15,537 bases of DNA from a virus (taxonomy: Duplodnaviria > Heunggongvirae > Uroviricota > Caudoviricetes), in IMG/VR virus record IMGVR_UViG_2690316278_000001. One strand, 5' to 3'. Shown here piece after piece: positions 1 through 15,421 of this stretch (its first letter is position 1; each line of letters opens with the position of its first letter). Position numbers and translations under genes: made by a program. Under the pieces are notes generated by a model. That model saw only the letters and a program-made list of their open reading frames with translations. It had not been told where the DNA came from and made no database searches.

Positions 1-155
1 AACAGATGTCTGGAAATATAGGGGCAAATCCAATCGTCGCCGTATTCCCGTATTAACAGAGACCGTAGCCCGACGGGGAACTCCTTCTGCGCGAGTGTGC
101 GGGAATAATCAAAAACGATGCACACCGGGGTTACCGGGTACACATATTTCATCAT
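1..155 (-). CDS. hypothetical protein, partial (runs off the left edge of the window; start lies next to an assembly gap)
   Basis: Reverse-strand frame is open for 51 codons from ATG-ATG at 150-155 (MMKYVYPVTPVCIVFDYSRTLAQKEFPVGLRSLLIREYGDDWICPYISRHL...) to position 1. The start context is lost in the N-run at 159-222. One + strand frame is also open here, so strand choice is uncertain. Confidence 0.3.
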   Translation of the reverse strand, partial: MMKYVYPVTPVCIVFDYSRTLAQKEFPVGLRSLLIREYGDDWICPYISRHL

Positions 156-222: not shown

Positions 223-236
223 CCGGACGTTATGAT

Positions 237-647
237 TTAGTGCGGAAATATTTGTGTAGTGTTCTGTATGTTCTCAGTAAAGAGTAATGAATTATCAAAG
301 GTATAGTAATACCTTTTGTTTTCGTGGATATTTGTAATCCATCTGAAAACCCCTGCTGTAGCAAGATTTTTCCTGTATTCGTAAAATGATAACTCTCCTG
401 ATTTGAATCCTTTTAAGGTGGCTTCTATAAGGCATTTATTTTTTGAAAATCTTACATTTACAACCTTACCCTGTCCTTTTATTAAAACCGTATTATCGTT
501 TTCAAGAACAAGATGAATATTCTCTGTGGCTAAATAGTAAATGTAATGTGAGACATTGTGACGTTTTAGTTCAGAATAAAACCAGTGATAGTTTAAATTA
601 TTTCGCACTTTATCGAATATTTGTTTAAAAATGGCAACCTGAGCCAT
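237..647 (-). CDS. hypothetical protein, AT-rich accessory ORF of unknown function (136 aa)
   Basis: Minus-strand ORF in the six-frame track (237..662). The ATG at 645-647 has a GGAAGG Shine-Dalgarno 7 nt upstream (complement of 655-660); the ATG at 660-662 has none. The DNA is visibly AT-rich compared with the structural genes, and a long ORF in AT-rich DNA is unlikely by chance. It lies 57 bp downstream of the RHH-like ORF on the same strand. No family recognised. Confidence 0.5.
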
Positions 648-704
648 TGTAGTACCTTCCATGTGATATGAGGGGGCGTAGTCTGCACGATTATCTAAAT
701 TGCT

Positions 705-938
705 TCAATCTGGTCTAACCTGTTTTCTGAGCAATTCAGTAATGTCACTCTTTTCTTTGTTTGCTTCAGGCGAAACTCTTTTTTCTGAGCACAGTCTCCG
801 GCGGCAGGCTTCAATGACCCAGGCTGAGAAATTCCCGGACCCTTTTTGAACAAGAGCGATGTTAATTTGTTCAATCATTTGGTTAGGAAAGCGGATGTTG
901 CGGGTTGTTGTTCTGCGGGTTCTGTTCTTCGTTGACAT
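705..938 (-). CDS. small ribbon-helix-helix (Arc/MetJ/CopG-like) putative DNA-binding protein; resembles the short DUF3950/YlcI-type ORFs found next to cos in lambdoid prophages
   Basis: 77-aa minus-strand ORF. The N-terminal pattern RNIRFPNQMIEQINIALVQKGSGNFSAWVIEACRRRL fits strand-helix-loop-helix of an RHH fold and is preceded by a basic tail. It is divergent from Nu1 across the cos region. Family assignment is from memory, not a search. Confidence 0.55.
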   Translation of the reverse strand: MSTKNRTRRTTTRNIRFPNQMIEQINIALVQKGSGNFSAWVIEACRRRLCSEKRVSPEANKEKSDITELLRKQVRPD

Positions 939-1087
939 GAGGTTGCCCTGTATTCAGTGTCGCTGATTTGTATTGTCTGAAGTTGTTTTTACGTTAAGTT
1001 GATGCAGATCAATTAATACGATACCTGCGTCATAATTGATTATTTGACGTGGTTTGATGGCGTAGATGCACGTTGTGACATGTAGAT

Positions 1088-1305
1088 GATAATTATTATC
1101 ATTTTGCGGGTCCTTTCCGGCGATCCGACAGGTTACGGGGCGGAAGGCGCGCGGGTTTTCGCTATTTATGACAATTTTCCGGTTTAAGGCGTTTCCGTTC
1201 TTCTTCGCCGTAACCTAATGTTTTTATTTAAAACACCCCCTGAAAAGAAAGGAAACGACAGGTGCTGAAAACGGGCTTTTTGGCCTCTGTCGTTTCCTTT
1301 CTCTG
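1088..1305 (+). other. cos: cos packaging site region (cosQ-proximal palindrome, cosN, cosB with Nu1-binding R3/R2/R1 elements and an AT-rich IHF-like site)
   Basis: Near-identical to the lambda right-end/left-end junction as I remember it. CGTTTCC-type Nu1 binding elements at 1190-1197 (R3), 1250-1258 (R2, inverted GGAAACGAC) and 1290-1297 (R1). AT-rich tract 1218-1240 between R3 and R2. 13-bp palindrome GATAATtATTATC at 1088-1100. Lies immediately upstream of the terminase small subunit gene. Confidence 0.8.
1138..1149 (+). other. cosN: cosN core (position of the 12-nt cohesive end), variant sequence GGGCGGAAGGCG
   Basis: Flanks ...GGTTACG | and | CGCGGGTTTTCGC match lambda. The 12 nt between them read GGGCGGAAGGCG, against canonical lambda GGGCGGCGACCT (5 substitutions in the 3' half). 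Comparison is from memory. Confidence 0.6.
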
Positions 1306-1326
1306 TTTTTGTCCGTGGAATGAACA

Positions 1327-1846
1327 ATGGAAGTCAACAAAAAGCAGCTGGCTGACATTTTCGGTGCGAGTATCCGTACCATTCAGAACTGGCAGGAACA
1401 GGGAATGCCCGTTCTGCGAGGCGGTGGCAAGGGTAATGAGGTGCTTTATGACTCTGCCGCCGTTATAAGATGGTATGCCGAAAGGGATGCTGAAATTGAG
1501 AACGAAAAGCTGCGCCGGGAAGTTGAAGAACTGCGGCAGGCCAGCGAGACAGATCTCCAGCCAGGGACTATTGAGTACGAACGCCATCGACTTACGCGTG
1601 CGCAGGCCGACGCACAGGAGCTGAAAAATGCCAGAGACTCCGCTGAAGTGGTGGAAACCGCATTCTGTACTTTCGTGCTGTCGCGGATCGCAGGTGAAAT
1701 TGCCAGTATTCTCGACGGGATCCCCCTGTCGGTGCAGCGGCGTTTTCCGGAACTGGAAAACCGACATGTTGATTTCCTGAAACGGGATATCATCAAAGCC
1801 ATGAACAAAGCAGCCGCGCTGGATGAACTGATACCGGGGTTGCTGA

Positions 1847-1872
<26 letters not shown>
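1327..1872 (+). CDS. Nu1: terminase small subunit (gpNu1)
   Basis: 181-aa ORF, MEVNKKQLADIFGASIRTIQNWQEQGMPVLRGG..., essentially the lambda gpNu1 sequence with its N-terminal winged-HTH. Sits directly after cosB and overlaps the start of A. Confidence 0.95.
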
Positions 1873-5553
<3,681 letters not shown>

Positions 5554-5573
<20 letters not shown>

Positions 5574-6873
5574 TCTCCCGCATATTGCCAGCATGGCTTT
5601 TAATGAGCCGCTGATGCTTGAACCCGCCTATGCGCGGGTTTTCTTTTGTGCGCTTGCAGGCCAGCTTGGGATCAGCTGCCTGACGGATGCAGTATCCGGC
5701 GACAGCCTGACTGCCGGAGAGGCACCCGCGGCGCTGGCGTTATCCGGTGATGATGACGGACCACGACAGGCCCGCAGTTATCAGGTAATGAACGGCATCG
5801 CCGTGCTGCCGGTGTCCGGCACGCTGGTCAGCCGGACGCGGGCGCTGCAGCCGTACTCGGGGATGACCGGTTACAACGGCATTATCGCCCGTCTGCAACA
5901 GGCTGCCAGCGACCCGATGGTGGACGGCATTCTGCTCGATATGGACACACCGGGCGGAATGGTGGCGGGAGCATTTGACTGCGCTGACATCATCGCCCGT
6001 GTGCGTGACATAAAGCCGGTATGGGCGCTGGCCAATGACATGAACTGCAGCGCAGGTCAGCTGCTTGCCAGTGCCGCCTCCCGGCGTCTGGTCACGCAGA
6101 CCGCCCGGACAGGCTCCATCGGCGTCATGATGGCTCACAGTAATTACGGCGCTGCACTGGAGAAACAGGGCGTGGAAATCACGCTGATTTACAGCGGCAG
6201 CCATAAGGTGGATGGCAACCCCTACAGCCATCTACCGGATGATGTCCGGGAAACATTGCAGTCCCGGATGGATGCAACCCGCCGGATGTTTGCACAGAAG
6301 GTGTCGGCATATACCGGCCTGTCCGTGCAGGCTGTGCTGGATACCGAGGCTGCAGTGTACAGCGGTCAGGAGGCCATTGATGCCGGACTGGCTGATGAAC
6401 TTGTTAACAGTACCGATGCGATCACCGTCATGCGTGATGCACTGGATGCACGTAAATCCCGTCTCTCAGGAGGGCGAATGACCAAAGAGACTCAATCAAC
6501 AACTGTTTCAGCCACTGCTTCGCAGGCTGACGTTACTGGCGTGGTGCAAGCGACGGAGGGCGAGAACGCCAGCGCGGCGCAGCCGGACGTGAACGCGCAG
6601 ATCACCGCAGCGGTTGCGGCAGAAAACAGTCGCATTATGGGGATCCTCAACTGTGAGGAGGCTCACGGACGCGAAGAACAGGCACGCGTGCTGGCCGAAA
6701 CCCCCGGTATGACCGTGGAAACGGCCCGCCGTATTCTGGCCGCAGCACCACAGAGTGCACAGACGCGCAGTGACACTGCGCTGGATCGTCTGATGCAGGG
6801 GGCACCGGCACCGCTGGCTGCAGGTAACCCGGCATCTGATGCCGTTAACGATTTGCTGAACACACCAGTGTAA
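5554..6873 (+). CDS. C: capsid maturation protease (gpC, ClpP/SppA-like S49 family)
   Basis: GTG at 5554 preceded by GAGGAGGAGAA Shine-Dalgarno; the product begins (M)TAELRNLPHIASMAFNEPLMLEP... as in lambda gpC (439 aa). The track ORF 5419..6873 is the same frame extended upstream into B. Overlaps the B 3' end by 20 nt. Confidence 0.9.
6268..6873 (+). CDS. Nu3: scaffolding protein gpNu3, nested in-frame in the 3' part of C
   Basis: In-frame internal ATG at 6268 (MDATRRMFAQKVSAYTG...) sharing the C stop codon. This matches the lambda C/Nu3 nested arrangement, which I know from the literature. Confidence 0.8.
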   Translation: MDATRRMFAQKVSAYTGLSVQAVLDTEAAVYSGQEAIDAGLADELVNSTDAITVMRDALDARKSRLSGGRMTKETQSTTVSATASQADVTGVVQATEGENASAAQPDVNAQITAAVAAENSRIMGILNCEEAHGREEQARVLAETPGMTVETARRILAAAPQSAQTRSDTALDRLMQGAPAPLAAGNPASDAVNDLLNTPV

Positions 6874-6882
6874 GGGATGTTT

Positions 6883-7326
6883 ATGACGAGCAAAGAAACC
6901 TTTACCCATTACCAGCCGCTGGGCAATAGTGACCCGGCTCATACCGCAACCGCGCCCGGCGGATTGAGTGCGAAAGCGCCTGCAATGACCCCGCTGATGC
7001 TGGACACNNNNNNNNNNNNNNNNNNNNNNNNNNNNNNNNNNNNNNNNNNNNNNNNNNNNNNNNNGCCCGGCGGATTGAGTGCGAAAGCGCCTGCAATGAC
7101 CCCGCTGATGCTGGACACCTCCACCCGTAAGCTGGTTGCGTGGGATGGCACCACCGACGGTGCTGCCGTTGGCATTCTTGCGGTTGCTGCTGACCAGACC
7201 AGCACCACACTGACGTTCTACAAGTCCGGCACGTTCCGTTATGAGGATGTGCTCTGGCCGGAGGCTGCCAGCGACGAGACGAAAAAACGGACCGTGTTTG
7301 CCGGAACGGCAATCAGCATCGTTTAA
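6883..7326 (+). CDS. D: head decoration protein gpD; interrupted in this assembly by an in-frame scaffold artefact (57 N plus a 54-nt duplicated contig end)
   Basis: [41 protein letters not shown]... The ATG at 6883 has an AAGGG Shine-Dalgarno 6 nt upstream; the ATG at 6877 has no spacing. Removing 7008-7118 (111 nt, exactly 37 codons) leaves 110 aa, the length of lambda gpD. Confidence 0.9.
7008..7064. other. assembly gap (N-run) inside D, flanked by a duplicated 54-nt sequence (6954-7007 = 7065-7118)
   Basis: 57 n characters; the 54 nt before and after the gap are identical, the signature of overlapping contig ends joined with a spacer. Confidence 0.9.
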
Positions 7327-7343
7327 CTTTACCCTTCATCACT

Positions 7344-7368
7344 AAAGGCCGCCTGTGCGGCTTTTTTT
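7344..7368 (+). terminator. GC-rich hairpin followed by a T7 run between D and E (intrinsic-terminator-like or mRNA-stability element)
   Basis: AAAGGCCGC ctgt GCGGC TTTTTTT: 8-9 bp stem with a 4-nt loop and a U-tract, read directly from the sequence. It sits inside the late operon, so it is probably read through. Confidence 0.45.
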
Positions 7369-7381
7369 ACGGGATTTTTTT

Positions 7382-8407
7382 ATGTCGATGTACACAACCG
7401 CCCAGCTGCTGGCGGCAAATGAGCAGAAATTTAAGTTTGATCCGCTGTTTCTGCGTCTCTTTTTCCGTGAGAGCTATCCCTTCACTACGGAGAAAGTCTA
7501 TCTCTCACAAATTCCGGGACTGGTAAACATGGCGCTGTACGTTTCGCCGATTGTTTCCGGTGAGGTTATCCGTTCCCGTGGCGGCTCCACCTCTGAATTT
7601 ACGCCGGGATATGTCAAACCCAAGCATGAGGTGAATCCGCAGATGACCCTGCGTCGCCTGCCGGATGAAGATCCGCAGAATCTGGCGGACCCGGCTTACC
7701 GCCGCCGTCGCATCATCATGCAGAACATGCGTGACGAAGAGCTGGCCATTGCTCAGGTCGAAGAGATGCAGGCAGTTTCTGCCGTGCTCAAGGGCAAATA
7801 CACCATGACCGGTGAAGCCTTCGATCCGGTTGAGGTGGATATGGGCCGCAGTGCGGCGAACAACATCACACAGTCCGGCGTCACGGAGTGGAGCAAGCGT
7901 GACAAGTCCACGTATGACCCGACCGACGATATCGAAGCCTACGCGCTGAACGCCAGCGGTGTGGTGAATATCATCGTGTTTGACCCGAAAGGCTGGGCGC
8001 TGTTCCGTTCCTTCAAAGCCGTCAAGGAGAAGCTGGATACCCGTCGCGGCTCTCATTCCGAGCTGGAGACAGCGGTAAAAGACCTGGGCAAAGCGGTGTC
8101 CTATAAGGGAATGTATGGCGATGTGGCCATCGTCGTGTATTCCGGACAGTACGTGGAAAACGGCGTCAAAAAGAACTTCCTGCCGGACAACACGATGGTG
8201 CTGGGGAACACTCAGGCTCGCGGTCTGCGCACCTATGGCTGCATTCAGGATGCGGACGCACAGCGCGAAGGCATTAACGCCTCTGCCCGTTACCCGAAAA
8301 ACTGGGTGACCACCGGCGATCCGGCGCGTGAGTTCACCATGATTCAGTCAGCACCGCTGATGCTGCTGGCTGATCCTGATGAGTTCGTGTCCGTTCAACT
8401 GGCGTAA
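7382..8407 (+). CDS. E: major capsid protein (gpE)
   Basis: 341-aa product starting MSMYTTAQLLAANEQKFKFDPLFLRLFFRESYPFTTEK..., matching lambda gpE. The track ORF starts earlier at a GTG inside the upstream hairpin, which I reject. Confidence 0.95.
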   Translation: MSMYTTAQLLAANEQKFKFDPLFLRLFFRESYPFTTEKVYLSQIPGLVNMALYVSPIVSGEVIRSRGGSTSEFTPGYVKPKHEVNPQMTLRRLPDEDPQNLADPAYRRRRIIMQNMRDEELAIAQVEEMQAVSAVLKGKYTMTGEAFDPVEVDMGRSAANNITQSGVTEWSKRDKSTYDPTDDIEAYALNASGVVNIIVFDPKGWALFRSFKAVKEKLDTRRGSHSELETAVKDLGKAVSYKGMYGDVAIVVYSGQYVENGVKKNFLPDNTMVLGNTQARGLRTYGCIQDADAQREGINASARYPKNWVTTGDPAREFTMIQSAPLMLLADPDEFVSVQLA

Positions 8408-8409
8408 TC

Positions 8410-8431
8410 ATGGCCCTTCGGGGCCATTTTC
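8410..8431 (+). terminator. perfect 7-bp hairpin with UUCG tetraloop plus U-rich tail immediately after E
   Basis: ATGGCCC ttcg GGGCCAT TTTCTCTCT at 8410-8436; the stem is perfectly complementary and UUCG is a very stable tetraloop. Placement after the most abundant structural gene suggests a 3' stability or partial attenuation element. Confidence 0.45.
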
Positions 8432-8448
8432 TCTCTGTGGAGGAGTTC

Positions 8449-8847
8449 ATGACGAAAGATGAACTGATTGCCCGTCTTCAGGAGCTGGGTGAGCAATTGA
8501 ACCGCGATGTCAGTTTGACGGGAACGAAAGAAGAACTGGCGCTTCGTGTGGCAGAGCTGGAAGAAGAGCTTGATGACACGGATGAAACTGCCGGTCAGGA
8601 CACCCCTCTCAGCCGGGAAAATGTGCTGACCGGGCATGAAAATGAGGTGGTATCAGCGCAGCCGGATACCGTGATTCAGGATACGGCTGAACTGGTCACG
8701 GTCGTGGCACTGGTGACGCTGCATACTGATGCACTTCACGCCACGCGGGATAAACCTGTGGCATTTGTGCTGCCGGGAACGGCGTTTCGTGTCTCTGCCG
8801 GTGTGGCAGCCGAAATGACAGAGCGCGGCCTGGCCAGAATGCAATAA
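8449..8847 (+). CDS. FI: DNA-packaging protein gpFI
   Basis: 132-aa product MTKDELIARLQELGEQLNRDVSLTGTKEELALRVAELEEELDD... with GGAGGA Shine-Dalgarno at 8439-8444; matches lambda gpFI. Confidence 0.92.
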   Translation: MTKDELIARLQELGEQLNRDVSLTGTKEELALRVAELEEELDDTDETAGQDTPLSRENVLTGHENEVVSAQPDTVIQDTAELVTVVALVTLHTDALHATRDKPVAFVLPGTAFRVSAGVAAEMTERGLARMQ

Positions 8848-8858
8848 CGGGAGGCGCT

Positions 8859-9212
8859 GTGGCTGATTTCGATAACCTGTTCGATGCTGCCATTGCCCGC
8901 GCCGATGAAACGATACGCGGGTACATGGGAACGTCAGCCACCATGACATCCGGTGAGCAGTCAGGTGCGGTGATACGTGGTGTTTTTGATGACCCTGAAA
9001 ATATCAGCTATGCCGGACAGGGCGTGCGCGTTGAAGGCTCCAGCCCGTCCCTGTTTGTCCGGACTGATGAGGTGCGGCAGCTGCGGCGTGGAGACACGCT
9101 GACCATCGGTGAGGAAAATTTCTGGGTAGATCGGGTTTCGCCGGATGATGGCGGAAGTTGTCATCTCTGGCTTGGACGGGGCGTACCGCCTGCCGTTAAC
9201 CGTCGCCGCTGA
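8859..9212 (+). CDS. FII: head-tail connector protein gpFII
   Basis: 117-aa ORF with GTG start, (M)ADFDNLFDAAIARADETIRGYMGTSATM...; matches lambda gpFII. Confidence 0.92.
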   Translation: MADFDNLFDAAIARADETIRGYMGTSATMTSGEQSGAVIRGVFDDPENISYAGQGVRVEGSSPSLFVRTDEVRQLRRGDTLTIGEENFWVDRVSPDDGGSCHLWLGRGVPPAVNRRR

Positions 9213-9223
9213 AAGGGGGATGT

Positions 9224-9802
9224 ATGGCCATAAAAGGTCTTGAGCAGGCCGTTGAAAACCTCAGCCGTATCAGCAAAACGGCGGTGCCCGGTGCCGCCGC
9301 AATGGCCATTAACCGCGTTGCTTCATCCGCGATATCGCAGTCTGCGTCACAGGTTGCCCGTGAGACAAAGGTACGCCGGAAACTGGTAAAGGAAAGGGCC
9401 AGGCTGAAAAGGGCCACGGTCAAAAATCCGCAGGCCAGAATCAAAGTTAACCGGGGGGATTTGCCCGTAATCAAGCTGGGTAATGCGCGGGTTGTCCTGT
9501 CCCGCCGCAGGCGTCATAAAAAGGGGCAGCGTTCATCCCTGAAAGGTGGCGGCAGCGTGCTTGTGGTGGGTAACCGTCGTATTCCCGGCGCGTTTATTCA
9601 GCAACTGAAAAACGGCCGGTGGCATGTTATGCAGCGTGTGGCCGGGAAAAACCGTTACCCCATTGATGTGGTGAAAATCCCGATGGCGGTGCCGCTGACC
9701 ACGGCGTTTAAACAGAATATTGAACGGATACGGCGTGAACGTCTTCCGAAAGAGCTGGGCTATGCGCTGCAGCATCAACTGAGAATGGTAATAAAGCGAT
9801 GA
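9224..9802 (+). CDS. Z: tail completion protein gpZ
   Basis: 192-aa ORF MAIKGLEQAVENLSRISKTAVPGAAAMAINR... with GGGGGA Shine-Dalgarno; matches lambda gpZ. ATGA overlap with U. Confidence 0.92.
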   Translation: MAIKGLEQAVENLSRISKTAVPGAAAMAINRVASSAISQSASQVARETKVRRKLVKERARLKRATVKNPQARIKVNRGDLPVIKLGNARVVLSRRRRHKKGQRSSLKGGGSVLVVGNRRIPGAFIQQLKNGRWHVMQRVAGKNRYPIDVVKIPMAVPLTTAFKQNIERIRRERLPKELGYALQHQLRMVIKR

Positions 9803-10194
9803 AACATACTGAACTCCGTGCAGCCGTACTGGATGCACTGGAGAAGCATGACACCGGGGCGACGCTTTTTGATGGTCGCCCCGCTGTTTTTGATGAGGAA
9901 GATTTTCCGGCAATTGCCGTTTATCTCACCGGCGCTGAATACACGGGCGAAGAGCTGGACAGCGATACCTGGCAGGCGGAGCTGCATATTGAAGTTTTCC
10001 TGCCTGCTCAGGTGCCGGATTCAGAGCTGGATTCGTGGATGGAGTCCCGGATTTATCCGGTGATGAGCGATATCCCGGCACTGTCAGATTTGATCACCAG
10101 TATGGTGGCCAGCGGCTATGACTACCGGCGCGACGATGATGCGGGCCTGTGGAGTTCAGCCGATCTGACTTATGTCATTATCTATGAAATGTGA
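9799..10194 (+). CDS. U: tail tube terminator protein gpU
   Basis: 131-aa [48 protein letters not shown]... matching lambda gpU. Confidence 0.93.
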
Positions 10195-10201
10195 GGACGC
10201 T

Positions 10202-10942
10202 ATGCCTGTACCAAATCCTACAATGCCGGTGAAAGGTGCCGGGACCACCCTGTGGGTTTATAAGGGGAGCGGTGACCCTTATGCGAACCCGCTTTCAGAC
10301 GTTGACTGGTCGCGTCTGGCAAAAGTTAAAGACCTGACGCCCGGCGAACTGACCGCTGAGTCCTATGACGACAGCTATCTCGATGATGAAGATGCAGACT
10401 GGACTGCGACCGGGCAGGGGCAGAAATCTGCCGGAGATACCAGCTTCACGCTGGCGTGGATGCCCGGAGAGCAGGGGCAGCAGGCGCTGCTGGCGTGGTT
10501 TAATGAAGGTGATACCCGTGCCTATAAAATCCGCTTCCCGAACGGCACGGTCGATGTGTTCCGTGGCTGGGTCAGCAGTATCGGTAAGGCGGTGACGGCG
10601 AAGGAGGTGATTACCCGCACGGTGAAGGTCACCAATGTGGGACGTCCGTCGATGGCAGAAGATCGCAGCACGGTGACGGCGACGACCGGCATGACGGTGA
10701 CACCCGCCAGTGCTTCCGTAGTGAAAGGGCAGAGCACCACGCTGACCGTGGCATTCCAGCCGGATGGCGCAACCGACAAGAGCTTCCGTGCGGTGTCTGC
10801 GGATAAAACAAAAGCCACCGTGTCGGTCAGTGGTATGACCATCACCGTGAAAGGTGTTGCTGCAGGCAAGGTCAACATTCCGGTCGTATCTGGTAATGGT
10901 GAGTTTGCTGCGGTTGCAGAAATCAACGTCACCGCCAGTTAA
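10202..10942 (+). CDS. V: major tail tube protein gpV, with C-terminal Ig-like (Big_2-type) domain
   Basis: 246-aa product [33 protein letters not shown]... with GAGGA Shine-Dalgarno at 10193-10197. The C-terminal ~80 aa ([77 protein letters not shown]) has the Ig-like signature known for lambda gpV. Confidence 0.93.
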
Positions 10943-10957
10943 TCCGGAGAGTCAGCG

Positions 10958-11380
10958 ATGTTCCTGAAAACCGAATCATTTGAACATAACGGTGTGACCG
11001 TCACGCTTTCTGAACTGTCAGCCCTGCAGCGTATTGAGCATCTCGACCTGATGAAACGGCAGGCAGAACAGGCGGAGTCAGACAGCAACCGGAAGTTTAC
11101 TGTGGAAGACGCCATCAGAACCGGCGCTTTTGTGGTTGCGATGTCCCTGTGGCATAACCATCCGAAGAAGACGCAGATGCCGTCCATGAATGAAGCCGTT
11201 AAACAGATTGAGCAGGAAGTGCTTACCACCTGGCCCACAGAGGCAATTTCTCATGCTGAAAACGTGGTGTACCGGCTGTCCGGTATGTATGAGTTTGTGG
11301 TGAATGATGCTCCTGAACAGGCAGAGGACGCCGGGCCTGCAGAGCCTGTTTCTGCGGGAAAGTGTTCGACGGTGAGCTGA
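10958..11380 (+). CDS. G: tail assembly chaperone gpG
   Basis: 140-aa ORF MFLKTESFEHNGVTVTLSELSALQRIEHLDLMKRQAEQAES... matching lambda gpG; contains the slippery site near its 3' end. Confidence 0.92.
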   Translation: MFLKTESFEHNGVTVTLSELSALQRIEHLDLMKRQAEQAESDSNRKFTVEDAIRTGAFVVAMSLWHNHPKKTQMPSMNEAVKQIEQEVLTTWPTEAISHAENVVYRLSGMYEFVVNDAPEQAEDAGPAEPVSAGKCSTVS

Positions 11381-11796
11381 GTTTTGCCCTGAAACTGGCG
11401 CGTGAGATGGGGCGACCCGACTGGCGCGCCATGCTTGCCGGGATGTCATCCACGGAGTATGCCGACTGGCACCGCTTTTACAGTACCCATTATTTTCATG
11501 ATGTTCTGCTGGATATGCACTTTTCCGGGCTGACGTACACCGTGCTCAGCCTGTTTTTCAGCGATCCGGAGATGCATCCGCTGGATTTCAGTCTGCTGAA
11601 CCGGCGCGAGGCTGACGAAGAGCCTGAAGATGATGTGCTGATGCAGAAAGCGGCAGGGCTTGCCGGAGGTGTCCGCTTTGGCCCGGACGGGAATGAAGTT
11701 ATCCCCGCTTCCCCGGATGTGGCGGACATGACGGAGGATGACGTAATGCTGATGACAGTATCAGAAGGGATCGCAGGAGGAGTCCGGTATGGCTGA
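10958..11796 (+). CDS. G-T: tail assembly chaperone gpG-T fusion made by programmed -1 ribosomal frameshift (slippery heptamer G GGA AAG at 11356-11362)
   Basis: The -1 frame ORF 11362..11796 (T segment, 144 codons) begins exactly at the GGGAAAG heptamer in the last codons of G and ends just after the H start. This is the classical lambda G/GT arrangement. Confidence 0.85.
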
Positions 11797-14397
11797 ACCG
11801 GTAGGCGATCTGGTCGTTGATTTGAGTCTGGATGCGGCCAGATTTGACGAGCAGATGGCCAGAGTCAGGCGTCATTTTTCCGGTACGGAAAGTGATGCGA
11901 AAAAAACAGCGGCAGTCGTTGAACAGTCGCTGAGCCGACAGGCGCTGGCTGCACAGAAAGCGGGGATTTCCGTCGGGCAGTATAAAGCCGCCATGCGTAT
12001 GCTGCCTGCACAGTTCAACGACGTGGCCACGCAGCTTGCAGGGGGGCAGAATCCCTGGCTGATCCTGCTGCAACAGGGTGGTCAGGTTAAGGACTCCTTC
12101 GGCGGGATGATCCCCATGTTCAGGGGGCTTGCCGGCGCGATCACCCTGCCGATGGTGGGGGCCACCTCGCTGGCGGTGGCGACCGGTGCGCTGGCGTATG
12201 CCTGGTATCAGGGCAACTCAACCCTGTCCGATTTCAACAAAACGCTGGTCCTTTCCGGTAATCAGGCGGGACTGACGGCAGATCGTATGCTGGTCCTGTC
12301 CAGAGCCGGGCAGGCGGCAGGGCTGACGTTTAACCAGACCAGCGAGTCACTCAGCGCACTGGTTAAGGCGGGGGTAAGCGGTGAGGCTCAGATTGCGTCC
12401 ATCAGCCAGAGTGTGGCGCGTTTCTCCTCTGCATCCGGCGTGGAGGTGGACAAGGTCGCTGAAGCCTTCGGGAAGCTGACCACAGACCCGACGTCGGGGC
12501 TGACGGCGATGGCACGCCAGTTCCATAACGTGACGGCGGANNNNNNNNNNNNNNNNNNNNNNNNNNNNNNNNNNNNNNGACGGCGGAGCAGATTGCGTAT
12601 GTTGCTCAGTTGCAGCGTTCCGGCGATGAAGCCGGGGCATTGCAGGCGGCGAACGAGGCCGCAACGAAAGGGTTTGATGACCAGACCCGCCGCCTGAAAG
12701 AGAACATGGGCACGCTGGAGACCTGGGCAGACAGGACTGCACGTGCATTCAAATCCATGTGGGATGCGGTGCTGGATATTGGTCGTCCTGATACCGCGCA
12801 GGAGATGCTGATTAAGGCAGAGGCTGCGTTTAAGAAAGCAGACGACATCTGGAATCTGCGCAAGGATGATTATTTCGTTAACGATGAAGCACGGGCGCGT
12901 TACTGGGATGATCGTGAAAAAAAACGCCTGGAGCGGGATGCAGCCCAAAAGAGGGTAGATCAACAGCGTCAACAGGACAAAAATGCGCAGCAGCAGAGCG
13001 ATACCGAAGCGTCACGGCTGAAATATACCGAAGAGGCGCAGAAGGCTTACGAACGGCTGCAGACGCCGCTGGAGAAATATACCGCCCGTCAGGAAGAACT
13101 GAACAAGGCACTGAAAGACGGAAAAATCCTGCAGGCAGATTACAACACGCTGATGGCGGCGGCGAAAAAGGATTATGAAGCGACGCTGAAAAAGCCGAAA
13201 CAGTCCGGCGTGAAGGTGTATGCGGGCGATCGTCAGGAAGACAGTGCTCATGCGGCCCTGCTGACGCTTCAGGCAGAACTCCGGACGCTGGAGAAGCATG
13301 CCGGAGCGAATGAGAAAATCAGCCAGCAGCGCCGGGATTTGTGGAAGGCAGAAAGTCAGTTCGCGGTACTGGAGGAGGCGGCACAACGTCGCCAGCTGTC
13401 CGCACAGGAGAAATCCCTGCTGGCGCATAAAGACGAGACGCTGGAGTACAAACGCCAGCTGGCTGCACTTGGTGACAAGGTTACGTATCAGGAGCACCTG
13501 AATGCGCTGGCGCAGCAGGCGGATAAATTCGCACAGCAGCAACGGGCAAAACGGGCAGCCATTGATGCGAAAAACCGGGGGCTGACTGACCGGCAGGCAG
13601 CGCGGGAAGCCACGGAACAGCGCCTGAAGGAACAGTATGGCGATAATCCTCTGGCGCTGAATAACGTCATGTCAGAGCAGAAAAAGACCTGGGCGGCTGA
13701 AGACCAGCTTCGCGGGAGCTGGATGGCAGGCCTGAAGTCCGGCTGGAGTGAGTGGGAAGAGAGCGCCACGGACAGTATGTCACAGGTTAAAAGTGCAGCC
13801 ACGCAGACCTTTGATGGTATTGCACAGAATATGGCGGCGATGCTGACCGGCAGTGAACAGAACTGGCGCAGCTTCACCCGCTCCGTGCTGTCCATGATGA
13901 CAGAAATTCTGCTTAAGCAGGCAATGGTGGGGATTGTCGGGAGTATCGGCAGCGCCATTGGCGGGGCTGTTGGTGGCGGCGCATCCGCGTCAGGTGGTAC
14001 AGCCATTCAGGCCGCTGCGGCGAAATTCCATTTTGCAACCGGGGGATTTACGGGAACCGGCGGCAAATATGAGCCAGCGGGGATTGTTCACCGTGGTGAA
14101 TTTGTCTTCACGAAGGAGGCAACCAGCCGGATTGGCGTGGGGAATCTCTACCGGCTGATGCGCGGCTATGCGGAAGGTGGTTATGTGGGCGGTGCCGGAA
14201 GTCCGGCGCAGATGCGGCGGGCTGAAGGCATTAATTTTAATCAGAACAATCACGTGGTGATTCAGAACGACGGTACGAATGGTCTGCCAGGTCCACAGAT
14301 GATGAAGGCCGTGTATGACATGGCCCGCAAGGGTGCCCGTGATGAAATTCAGACACAGATGCGTGATGGTGGCCAGTTCTCCGGAGGTGGACGATGA
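11789..14397 (+). CDS. H: tail tape measure protein (gpH); reading frame broken in this assembly by a scaffold artefact at 12541-12587
   Basis: Two track ORFs (11789..12697 and 12610..14397) are the N- and C-terminal parts of one gene. Removing the 38-N run plus the 9-nt duplicated GACGGCGGA (47 nt) joins ...ARQFHNVTA to EQIAYVAQLQRSGDEAG... in frame and gives 853 aa, the length of lambda gpH. Long K/R/E/Q-rich helical middle and Gly-rich C-terminal segment are typical of tape measure proteins. Confidence 0.88.
12541..12578. other. assembly gap (N-run) inside H, flanked by duplicated GACGGCGGA
   Basis: 38 n characters with 9 nt repeated on both sides (12532-12540 and 12579-12587); produces an apparent frameshift. 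Confidence 0.85.
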
Positions 14398-14723
14398 AAA
14401 CCTTCCGCTGGAAAGTGAAACCCGGTATGGATGTGGCTTCGGCCCCTTCTGTAAGAAAGGTGCGCTTTGGTGATGGTTATTCCCAGCGAGCGCCTGCCGG
14501 GCTGAATGCCAACCTGAAAACGTACAGCGTGACGCTTTCTGTCCCCCGTGAGGAGGCCATGGTACTGGAGTCGTTTCTGGAAGAGCACGGGGGCTGGAAA
14601 GCCTTTCTGTGGACGCCGCCTTATGAGTGGCGGCAGATAAAGGTGACCTGCGCAAAATGGTCGTCGCGGGTCAGTATGCTGCGTGTTGAGTTCAGCGCAG
14701 AGTTTGAACAGGTGGTGAACTGA
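14394..14723 (+). CDS. M: tail tip protein gpM
   Basis: 109-aa ORF MKTFRWKVKPGMDVASAPSVRKVRFGDGYSQRAPAGLNANLKTYSVTLS... matching lambda gpM. GGAGGTGG Shine-Dalgarno; ATGA overlap with the H stop. Confidence 0.93.
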   Translation: MKTFRWKVKPGMDVASAPSVRKVRFGDGYSQRAPAGLNANLKTYSVTLSVPREEAMVLESFLEEHGGWKAFLWTPPYEWRQIKVTCAKWSSRVSMLRVEFSAEFEQVVN

Positions 14724-15421
14724 TGCAGGATATCCGGCAGGAAACACTGAATGAATGCACCCGTGCGGAGCAGTCGGCCAGCGTGGTGCTCTGGGAAATC
14801 GATCTGACAGAGGTCGGTGGAGAACGTTATTTTTTCTGTAATGAGCAGAACGAAAAAGGTGAGCCGGTCACCTGGCAGGGGCGACAGTATCAGCCGTATC
14901 CCATTCAGGGGAGTGGTTTTGAACTGAATGGCAAAGGCACCAGTACGCGCCCCACGCTGATGGTTTCTAACCTGTACGGTATGGTCACCGGGATGGCGGA
15001 AGATCTACAGAGTCTGGTCGGCGGAACGGTGGTCCGGCGTAAGGTTTACGCCCGTTTTCTGGATGCGGTGAACTTCGTCAACGGAAACAGTGACGCCGAT
15101 CCGGAGCAGGAGGTGATCAGCCGCTGGCGCATTGAGCAGTGCAGCGAACTGAGCGCGGTGAGTGCCTCTTTTGTACTGTCCACGCCGACGGAAACAGATG
15201 GCGCTGTTTTTCCGGGACGTATCATGCTGGCCAACACCTGCACCTGGACCTATCGCGGCGATGAGTGCGGTTATCACGGTCCGGCGGTCGCGGATGAATA
15301 TGACCAGCCAACGTCCGACATCACGAAGGATAAATGCAGCAAATGCCTGAGTGGCTGTAAGTTTCGCAATAACGTCGGCAACTTTGGCGGCTTCCTTTCC
15401 ATTAACAAACTTTCGCAGTAA
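14723..15421 (+). CDS. L: tail tip protein gpL (C-terminal cysteine cluster consistent with the reported Fe-S domain)
   Basis: 232-aa ORF MQDIRQETLNECTRAEQSASVVLWEIDLTEVGGERYFFCNEQNEKGEP... matching lambda gpL. C-terminal Cys residues in CTWTYRGDECGY...CSKCLSGC. TGATG overlap with M. Confidence 0.93.
   Translation: MQDIRQETLNECTRAEQSASVVLWEIDLTEVGGERYFFCNEQNEKGEPVTWQGRQYQPYPIQGSGFELNGKGTSTRPTLMVSNLYGMVTGMAEDLQSLVGGTVVRRKVYARFLDAVNFVNGNSDADPEQEVISRWRIEQCSELSAVSASFVLSTPTETDGAVFPGRIMLANTCTWTYRGDECGYHGPAVADEYDQPTSDITKDKCSKCLSGCKFRNNVGNFGGFLSINKLSQ

Follow-up and report, generated by a model that had tools for sequence, protein, structure and literature searches.

An apparent 37-codon insertion in the head decoration gene D of a lambda-like prophage scaffold is almost certainly an assembly artefact

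The DNA analysed in this work, referred to as the window, is the whole 15,537-nt stretch of the IMG/VR record IMGVR_UViG_2690316278_000001, which covers the head-tail module of a lambda-like prophage. In the annotation of collinear complete E. coli genomes, the genes follow the order of terminase small and large subunits, head-tail joining protein, portal, S49 peptidase (C/Nu3), head decoration protein, major capsid protein and FI, followed by tail proteins, G/T, tape measure, M and L. The position of the head decoration gene D was taken from this reference annotation together with the feature names found under the matches to phage records. All of the head and tail frames in the window are intact except for two genes that are cut by runs of N, and apparent gene defects are present only at the N runs. 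Three such runs were found, at 159-222 (64 N), 7008-7064 (57 N) and 12541-12578 (38 N). The features considered below are as follows.

6883-7326, plus strand: head decoration gene D as written in the scaffold, 147 codons and a stop codon with a poly-X stretch, from the translation
6883-7007 joined to 7119-7326, plus strand: the D gene in what is almost certainly its true form, 333 nt, 110 codons and a stop codon
6954-7007, no strand: left 54-nt copy, interpreted as the 3' terminus of the upstream contig, from the repeat search and the reference alignments
7008-7064, no strand: N run in D, 57 N, read as scaffold filler; the true gap is -54 nt by the reference alignments
7065-7118, no strand: right 54-nt copy, interpreted as the 5' terminus of the downstream contig; in the alignments it falls on the reference bases of the left copy
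159-222, no strand: N run 1, 64 N in place of 28 real bases (AGCGAGTCCGGTTCTGGCACGGAAGAAA), from the alignments
12532-12587, no strand: N run 3 (38 N at 12541-12578) with its flanking 9-nt overlap (GACGGCGGA), out of frame
11789-14397, plus strand: tape-measure gene H, split into two frames by N run 3 and intact when the overlap is collapsed

As written in the scaffold, the D frame starts at a canonical ATG at 6883 (MTSKETF...) and ends at a stop codon at 7324-7326, giving 147 codons, while the ORF list reports it as 6877-7326 (149 aa), begun at an upstream ATG. The extent of the 57-N run inside this frame was established by direct reading and by a script check. The string GCCCGGCGGATTGAGTGCGAAAGCGCCTGCAATGACCCCGCTGATGCTGGACAC is present at both 6954-7007 and 7065-7118 with 54 of 54 positions identical, and the sequence-only reading had given these coordinates exactly. 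The inner side of each copy abuts the N run directly; on the outer sides the counterpart bases are N, so the extent of the repeat is not comparable any further. One copy and the N run together contribute 54 + 57 = 111 nt, or 37 codons, of extra length. In the resulting translation an 18-residue peptide is present twice, along with a poly-X stretch of 19 X codons (20 if ACN is also counted as X), in agreement with the earlier description of a frame that reads through a duplicated segment. No other direct repeat in the window comes close to the length of the 54-nt pair: the next family is only 29 nt long at 86% identity, and the pair is therefore not a chance repeat. Apart from the N run, the composition profile around the site showed nothing unusual.

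The alignments to references and relatives place both copies on the same bases. In the complete genome of E. coli A38 (L001), window 223-7007 corresponds to 2824-9608 and window 7065-12540 to 9555-15030, hence the two pieces overlap by 54 reference bases and the left and right copies both align to 9555-9608. The same 54-nt overlap was found in the complete genome of E. coli ECCHD184 (L149), where the left piece ends at 7585 and the right piece begins at 7532; the single 54-mer lies at 7532-7585 of the reverse complement of this locus. The closest relative was an IMG/VR contig, L153, which matches the left piece of the window at 99.7% identity and the right piece at 99.98% in an uninterrupted, N-free sequence where the 54-mer is present once (6900-6953). 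Window 7007 is equivalent to 6953 in L153 and window 7065 to 6900. A38, ECCHD184 and L153 are collinear with the window only when D is in the collapsed form. The single-copy form is therefore present in what is effectively the same prophage of the same lineage.

When the N run and one 54-nt copy were removed, an intact D gene of 333 nt was recovered, with 110 codons and a stop codon. The translated 110-aa protein has an exact match in a collection of 15 billion proteins, where it is named "head decoration protein [Shigella sonnei]" and "MULTISPECIES: head decoration protein [Shigella]"; at least 1000 contigs carry it. The Pfam family PF02924 (HDPD) matched residues 3-106 of the collapsed protein to profile positions 2-112 of 116, with a score of 75.8 bits against a cut-off of 29.1. 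Compared with lambda gpD (PDB 7vii_H), 107 of the 110 residues are identical (E = 2.6e-67). The gene in this prophage is an ordinary lambda-type D of 110 codons.

The other two N runs also differ in length from what they replace. At run 1, the flanks are separated by 28 nt in ECCHD184 and in five contigs that share the IS junction of the window (L150-L154), in place of the 64 N written. At run 3, the 9-mer GACGGCGGA at 12532-12540 is repeated at 12579-12587, and both A38 and ECCHD184 put the two sides 9 nt past each other. Once collapsed, the junction would read continuously as AACGTGACGGCGGAGCAGATT, and this collapsed junction was found exactly in at least 120 viral contigs. As written, H gives 302 aa to the first stop codon and is present in the ORF list as two pieces, 11789-12697 and 12610-14397; removal of the N and one 9-mer restores a frame of 853 codons, equal in length to lambda gpH. 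The excess of N over the true gap is 36, 111 and 47 nt for runs 1, 2 and 3, respectively. As all three exceed the true gaps, the N counts are imprecise estimates and not masked real sequence. Overlapping ends are present at two of the three gaps of the scaffold, and the overlap artefact is systematic in this record.

A similar picture would result if D really carried an in-frame tandem duplication of 111 nt (approximately codons 24-61), with its middle left as N by the assembler, but this is very improbable. The added length is exactly 111 nt and the frame is kept, as a selected duplication would show, and the repeat would be a perfect tandem one if the hidden 57 nt were the same as 7119-7175. 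If true, gpD would have a natural variant in which a core segment (approximately residues 24-61) is duplicated. However, the novel junction that such a duplication would create is hidden by N in the window and was absent from the collections searched. With a 50-nt query there was no match to the repeat junction in 5,426 complete E. coli genomes; this query took 25 nt from each side, so that neither half was long enough to seed a match alone, whereas an earlier 111-nt junction query against E. coli genomes was uninformative, as normal genes match it in two pieces. Two 19-nt flanks placed 57 nt apart were found in no contig of the three large collections searched (genome, viral and metagenome), while, as a positive control, this pattern of two flanks separated by any 57 bases did match the window itself. 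The hypothetical 147-aa protein carrying the duplication was likewise absent from the approximately 15 billion proteins. All 80 phage records matching window 6500-7500 cover the 1001-nt query in 890 nt, which is 111 fewer. The 54-mer was single-copy in all 149 loci fetched to that point. Where D could be read from start to stop (146 loci), it had 110 codons in 143, and the other three carried frame-disrupting changes, giving 0, 83 and 116 codons; no D of approximately 147 codons was found among these loci. The same-lineage contig L153 is also single-copy. As N counts are off by 36 and 47 nt elsewhere in the scaffold, an exact 57 would be a coincidence for a real duplication too. Since gap mis-sizing is systematic here and the chance is one in three, the fact that 57 completes a multiple of three loses its significance. 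Gap 3 has the same overlap signature in a place where a frameshift would result. Furthermore, from a de Bruijn assembler one would expect a second break where the repeat unit ends (approximately 7175), while the right-hand contig is unbroken for 5.4 kb past the D gap; this last argument is our own reasoning.

Another possibility is that the N run masks real bases one-for-one, such that 57 nt lie between two real 54-nt copies. The description of one of the collections does mention that a few stretches are masked as N, but this reading is extremely unlikely. In six independent relatives, of which five have exactly the IS junction of the window, just 28 nt stand where run 1 has 64 N, so the N runs in this scaffold are not length-preserving. 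The 57-nt spacing was also present in no public contig searched. An insertion with a long target duplication would be one example of such masked sequence, and we know of no mobile element that fits a 57-nt insert with a 54-nt target duplication. There is also a very slight chance that the join is an artefact of a different kind, in which the contigs came from two lambdoid prophages of the same genome and the collapsed D is a hybrid that exists nowhere. The region is multi-copy in many E. coli genomes, in up to 6 places per genome, multi-copy repeats are a common reason for contig breaks, and the sites just to the right of the 54-mer are polymorphic among alleles. Against this, L153, an uninterrupted contig that also has the IS junction, is 99.7-99.98% identical to the two sides, and the exact collapsed protein, including the rarer V101, is the one found on the at least 1000 contigs mentioned above.

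The explanation we favour, with a probability of approximately 0.96, is that the 37-codon insertion in D arose when two contigs with overlapping ends were joined through filler N, and that the real D has 110 codons. Two contigs whose ends overlap by 54 nt would have been joined at 7008-7064 by a scaffolding or gap-filling step. The contigs could have been linked by read-pair distance with the 54-nt overlap going undetected, and the length of the N run would have been set by an over-estimated, imprecise distance, resulting in the same 54 nt being written twice with 57 N between them. As 54 + 57 is a multiple of three, a one-in-three coincidence, the D frame is not interrupted and looks as if it had gained 37 codons. 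We infer this assembly process from its product, namely the anatomy of the site, the collinearity with references, the absence of a long form and the mis-sized gaps, which were themselves observed. If the join is an artefact, the sequencing reads should be without the GTTGGCAT|GCCCGGCG junction, and should run continuously from 6953 through one 54-mer to 7119. The site has the features of a scaffold gap with an overlap: the N lie between abutting copies, the suffix of one side equals the prefix of the other at 54 of 54 positions, the collapse restores both collinearity and an intact gene, and the other gaps are mis-sized or overlapping. The sequence-only reading had proposed both overlapping contig ends joined with a spacer and an intact 110-codon D. 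The first proposal is supported by the alignments to A38, ECCHD184 and L153, by the lack of any long form in the searches and by the mis-sized gaps; the second was borne out when the overlap was collapsed and re-translated, giving the 110 aa of the exact Shigella protein match.

The reason for the contig break at this position was also considered. The 54-mer could be a k-1 node shared by two co-resident D alleles, a cause which is half supported by our comparison. The D alleles vary right after the 54-mer (window 7119-7125, codons 43-44), where the variants TSTRK, TSSRK and TATRK were observed, therefore the contig end in D adjoins a polymorphic spot. The 54-mer itself does not vary among the loci compared, but these had been chosen for carrying it exactly, so that its invariance is by construction. 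Polymorphic sites were found at +1, +2 and +6 to the right of the 54-mer, while there was no polymorphic site within 8 nt to its left. A fixed k-1 is also at odds with the overlap of 9 nt at gap 3.

The most probable source of the scaffold is Shigella or a closely related E. coli. Window 1-32 is the end of a multi-copy IS element, which is IS2 by the annotation under one match, and which is inserted beside the prophage region upstream of a DUF1398 (ydfO-like) gene in the references. An identical IS junction was found by a pattern search in five IMG/VR contigs (L150-L154), of which L153 reaches through D. This shared junction marks a specific lineage, which is probably Shigella, judging by the names on the exact D protein.

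Several other observations were made on these relatives and on the sequences surrounding D. At approximately position 5794, L153 is without 19 nt (CAGCCGGACGCGGGCGCTG) that the window has at 5829-5847 in gene C/Nu3. The length of window 223-7007 is equal to that of A38 and within 1 nt of that of ECCHD184, and from this overall length the 19 nt are presumably present in both genomes. The loss of 19 nt may frameshift the protease/scaffold gene of L153, or it may be an assembly error in L153. Between D and E, at window 7337-7366, a GC-rich hairpin is present with a T run after it (aaaggccgcctgtgcggcttttttt); related phage records (HK629) have a terminator annotated within the stretch that the query spans.

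The exact lambda-type 54-mer of D was also present on short contigs of unrelated taxa (L002, L006, L007, L008, L011, L014, L016 and others), including Pseudoxanthomonas, Neobacillus, Kitasatospora, Paenibacillus, an Akkermansia MAG, Enterococcus and others. Several of these contigs have a coverage of approximately 1-2x according to their names. The occurrence of the 54-mer in these taxa is most likely due to contamination of the assemblies with lambda DNA. Similarly, record MW057783.1, named 'Campylobacter phage CJLB-4' (48,361 bp), is 98.5% identical to the query over C-D-E, the same as lambda, and has a lambda-style annotation, which suggests a lambda contaminant or a mislabelled record.

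No biological feature underlies the insertion in D, and it brings no new biology. The finding serves only as a data-quality flag, as the overlaps at 7008-7064 and 12541-12578 need to be collapsed before annotation or comparison. Without this, D would be taken for a split gene or for a poly-X variant of 147 codons and H would look frameshifted, so that an apparently intact prophage head-tail module would look defective. It had also been predicted that annotation pipelines would miscall D. This found no confirmation in the 15-billion-protein collection, from which four possible X-containing translations were absent.

In comparison with known systems, the collapsed D differs from bacteriophage lambda gpD (PDB 1C5E, 1VD0, 7VII) at Q13L, S44T and A101V. 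Its location is the same as in lambda, with the C/Nu3 protease-scaffold gene on one side and the major capsid gene E on the other. No functional difference from lambda gpD is indicated, the 37 extra codons of the scaffold not being real. With regard to the assembly, scaffolders that insert a gap between contigs that truly overlap have been described to leave features fragmented or duplicated (ARBitR preprint, 10.1101/2020.04.29.065847), and a phrase search of Ko et al. 2022 (PMC9516828) returned no wording on duplications beside gaps. The D site shares with this negative-gap scaffolding artefact, a false local duplication, an N run between identical sequences and the restoration of genes upon collapse. 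Unlike the negative-gap artefact in general, the length added here is a multiple of three, so that D resembles an insertion variant and not a broken gene.
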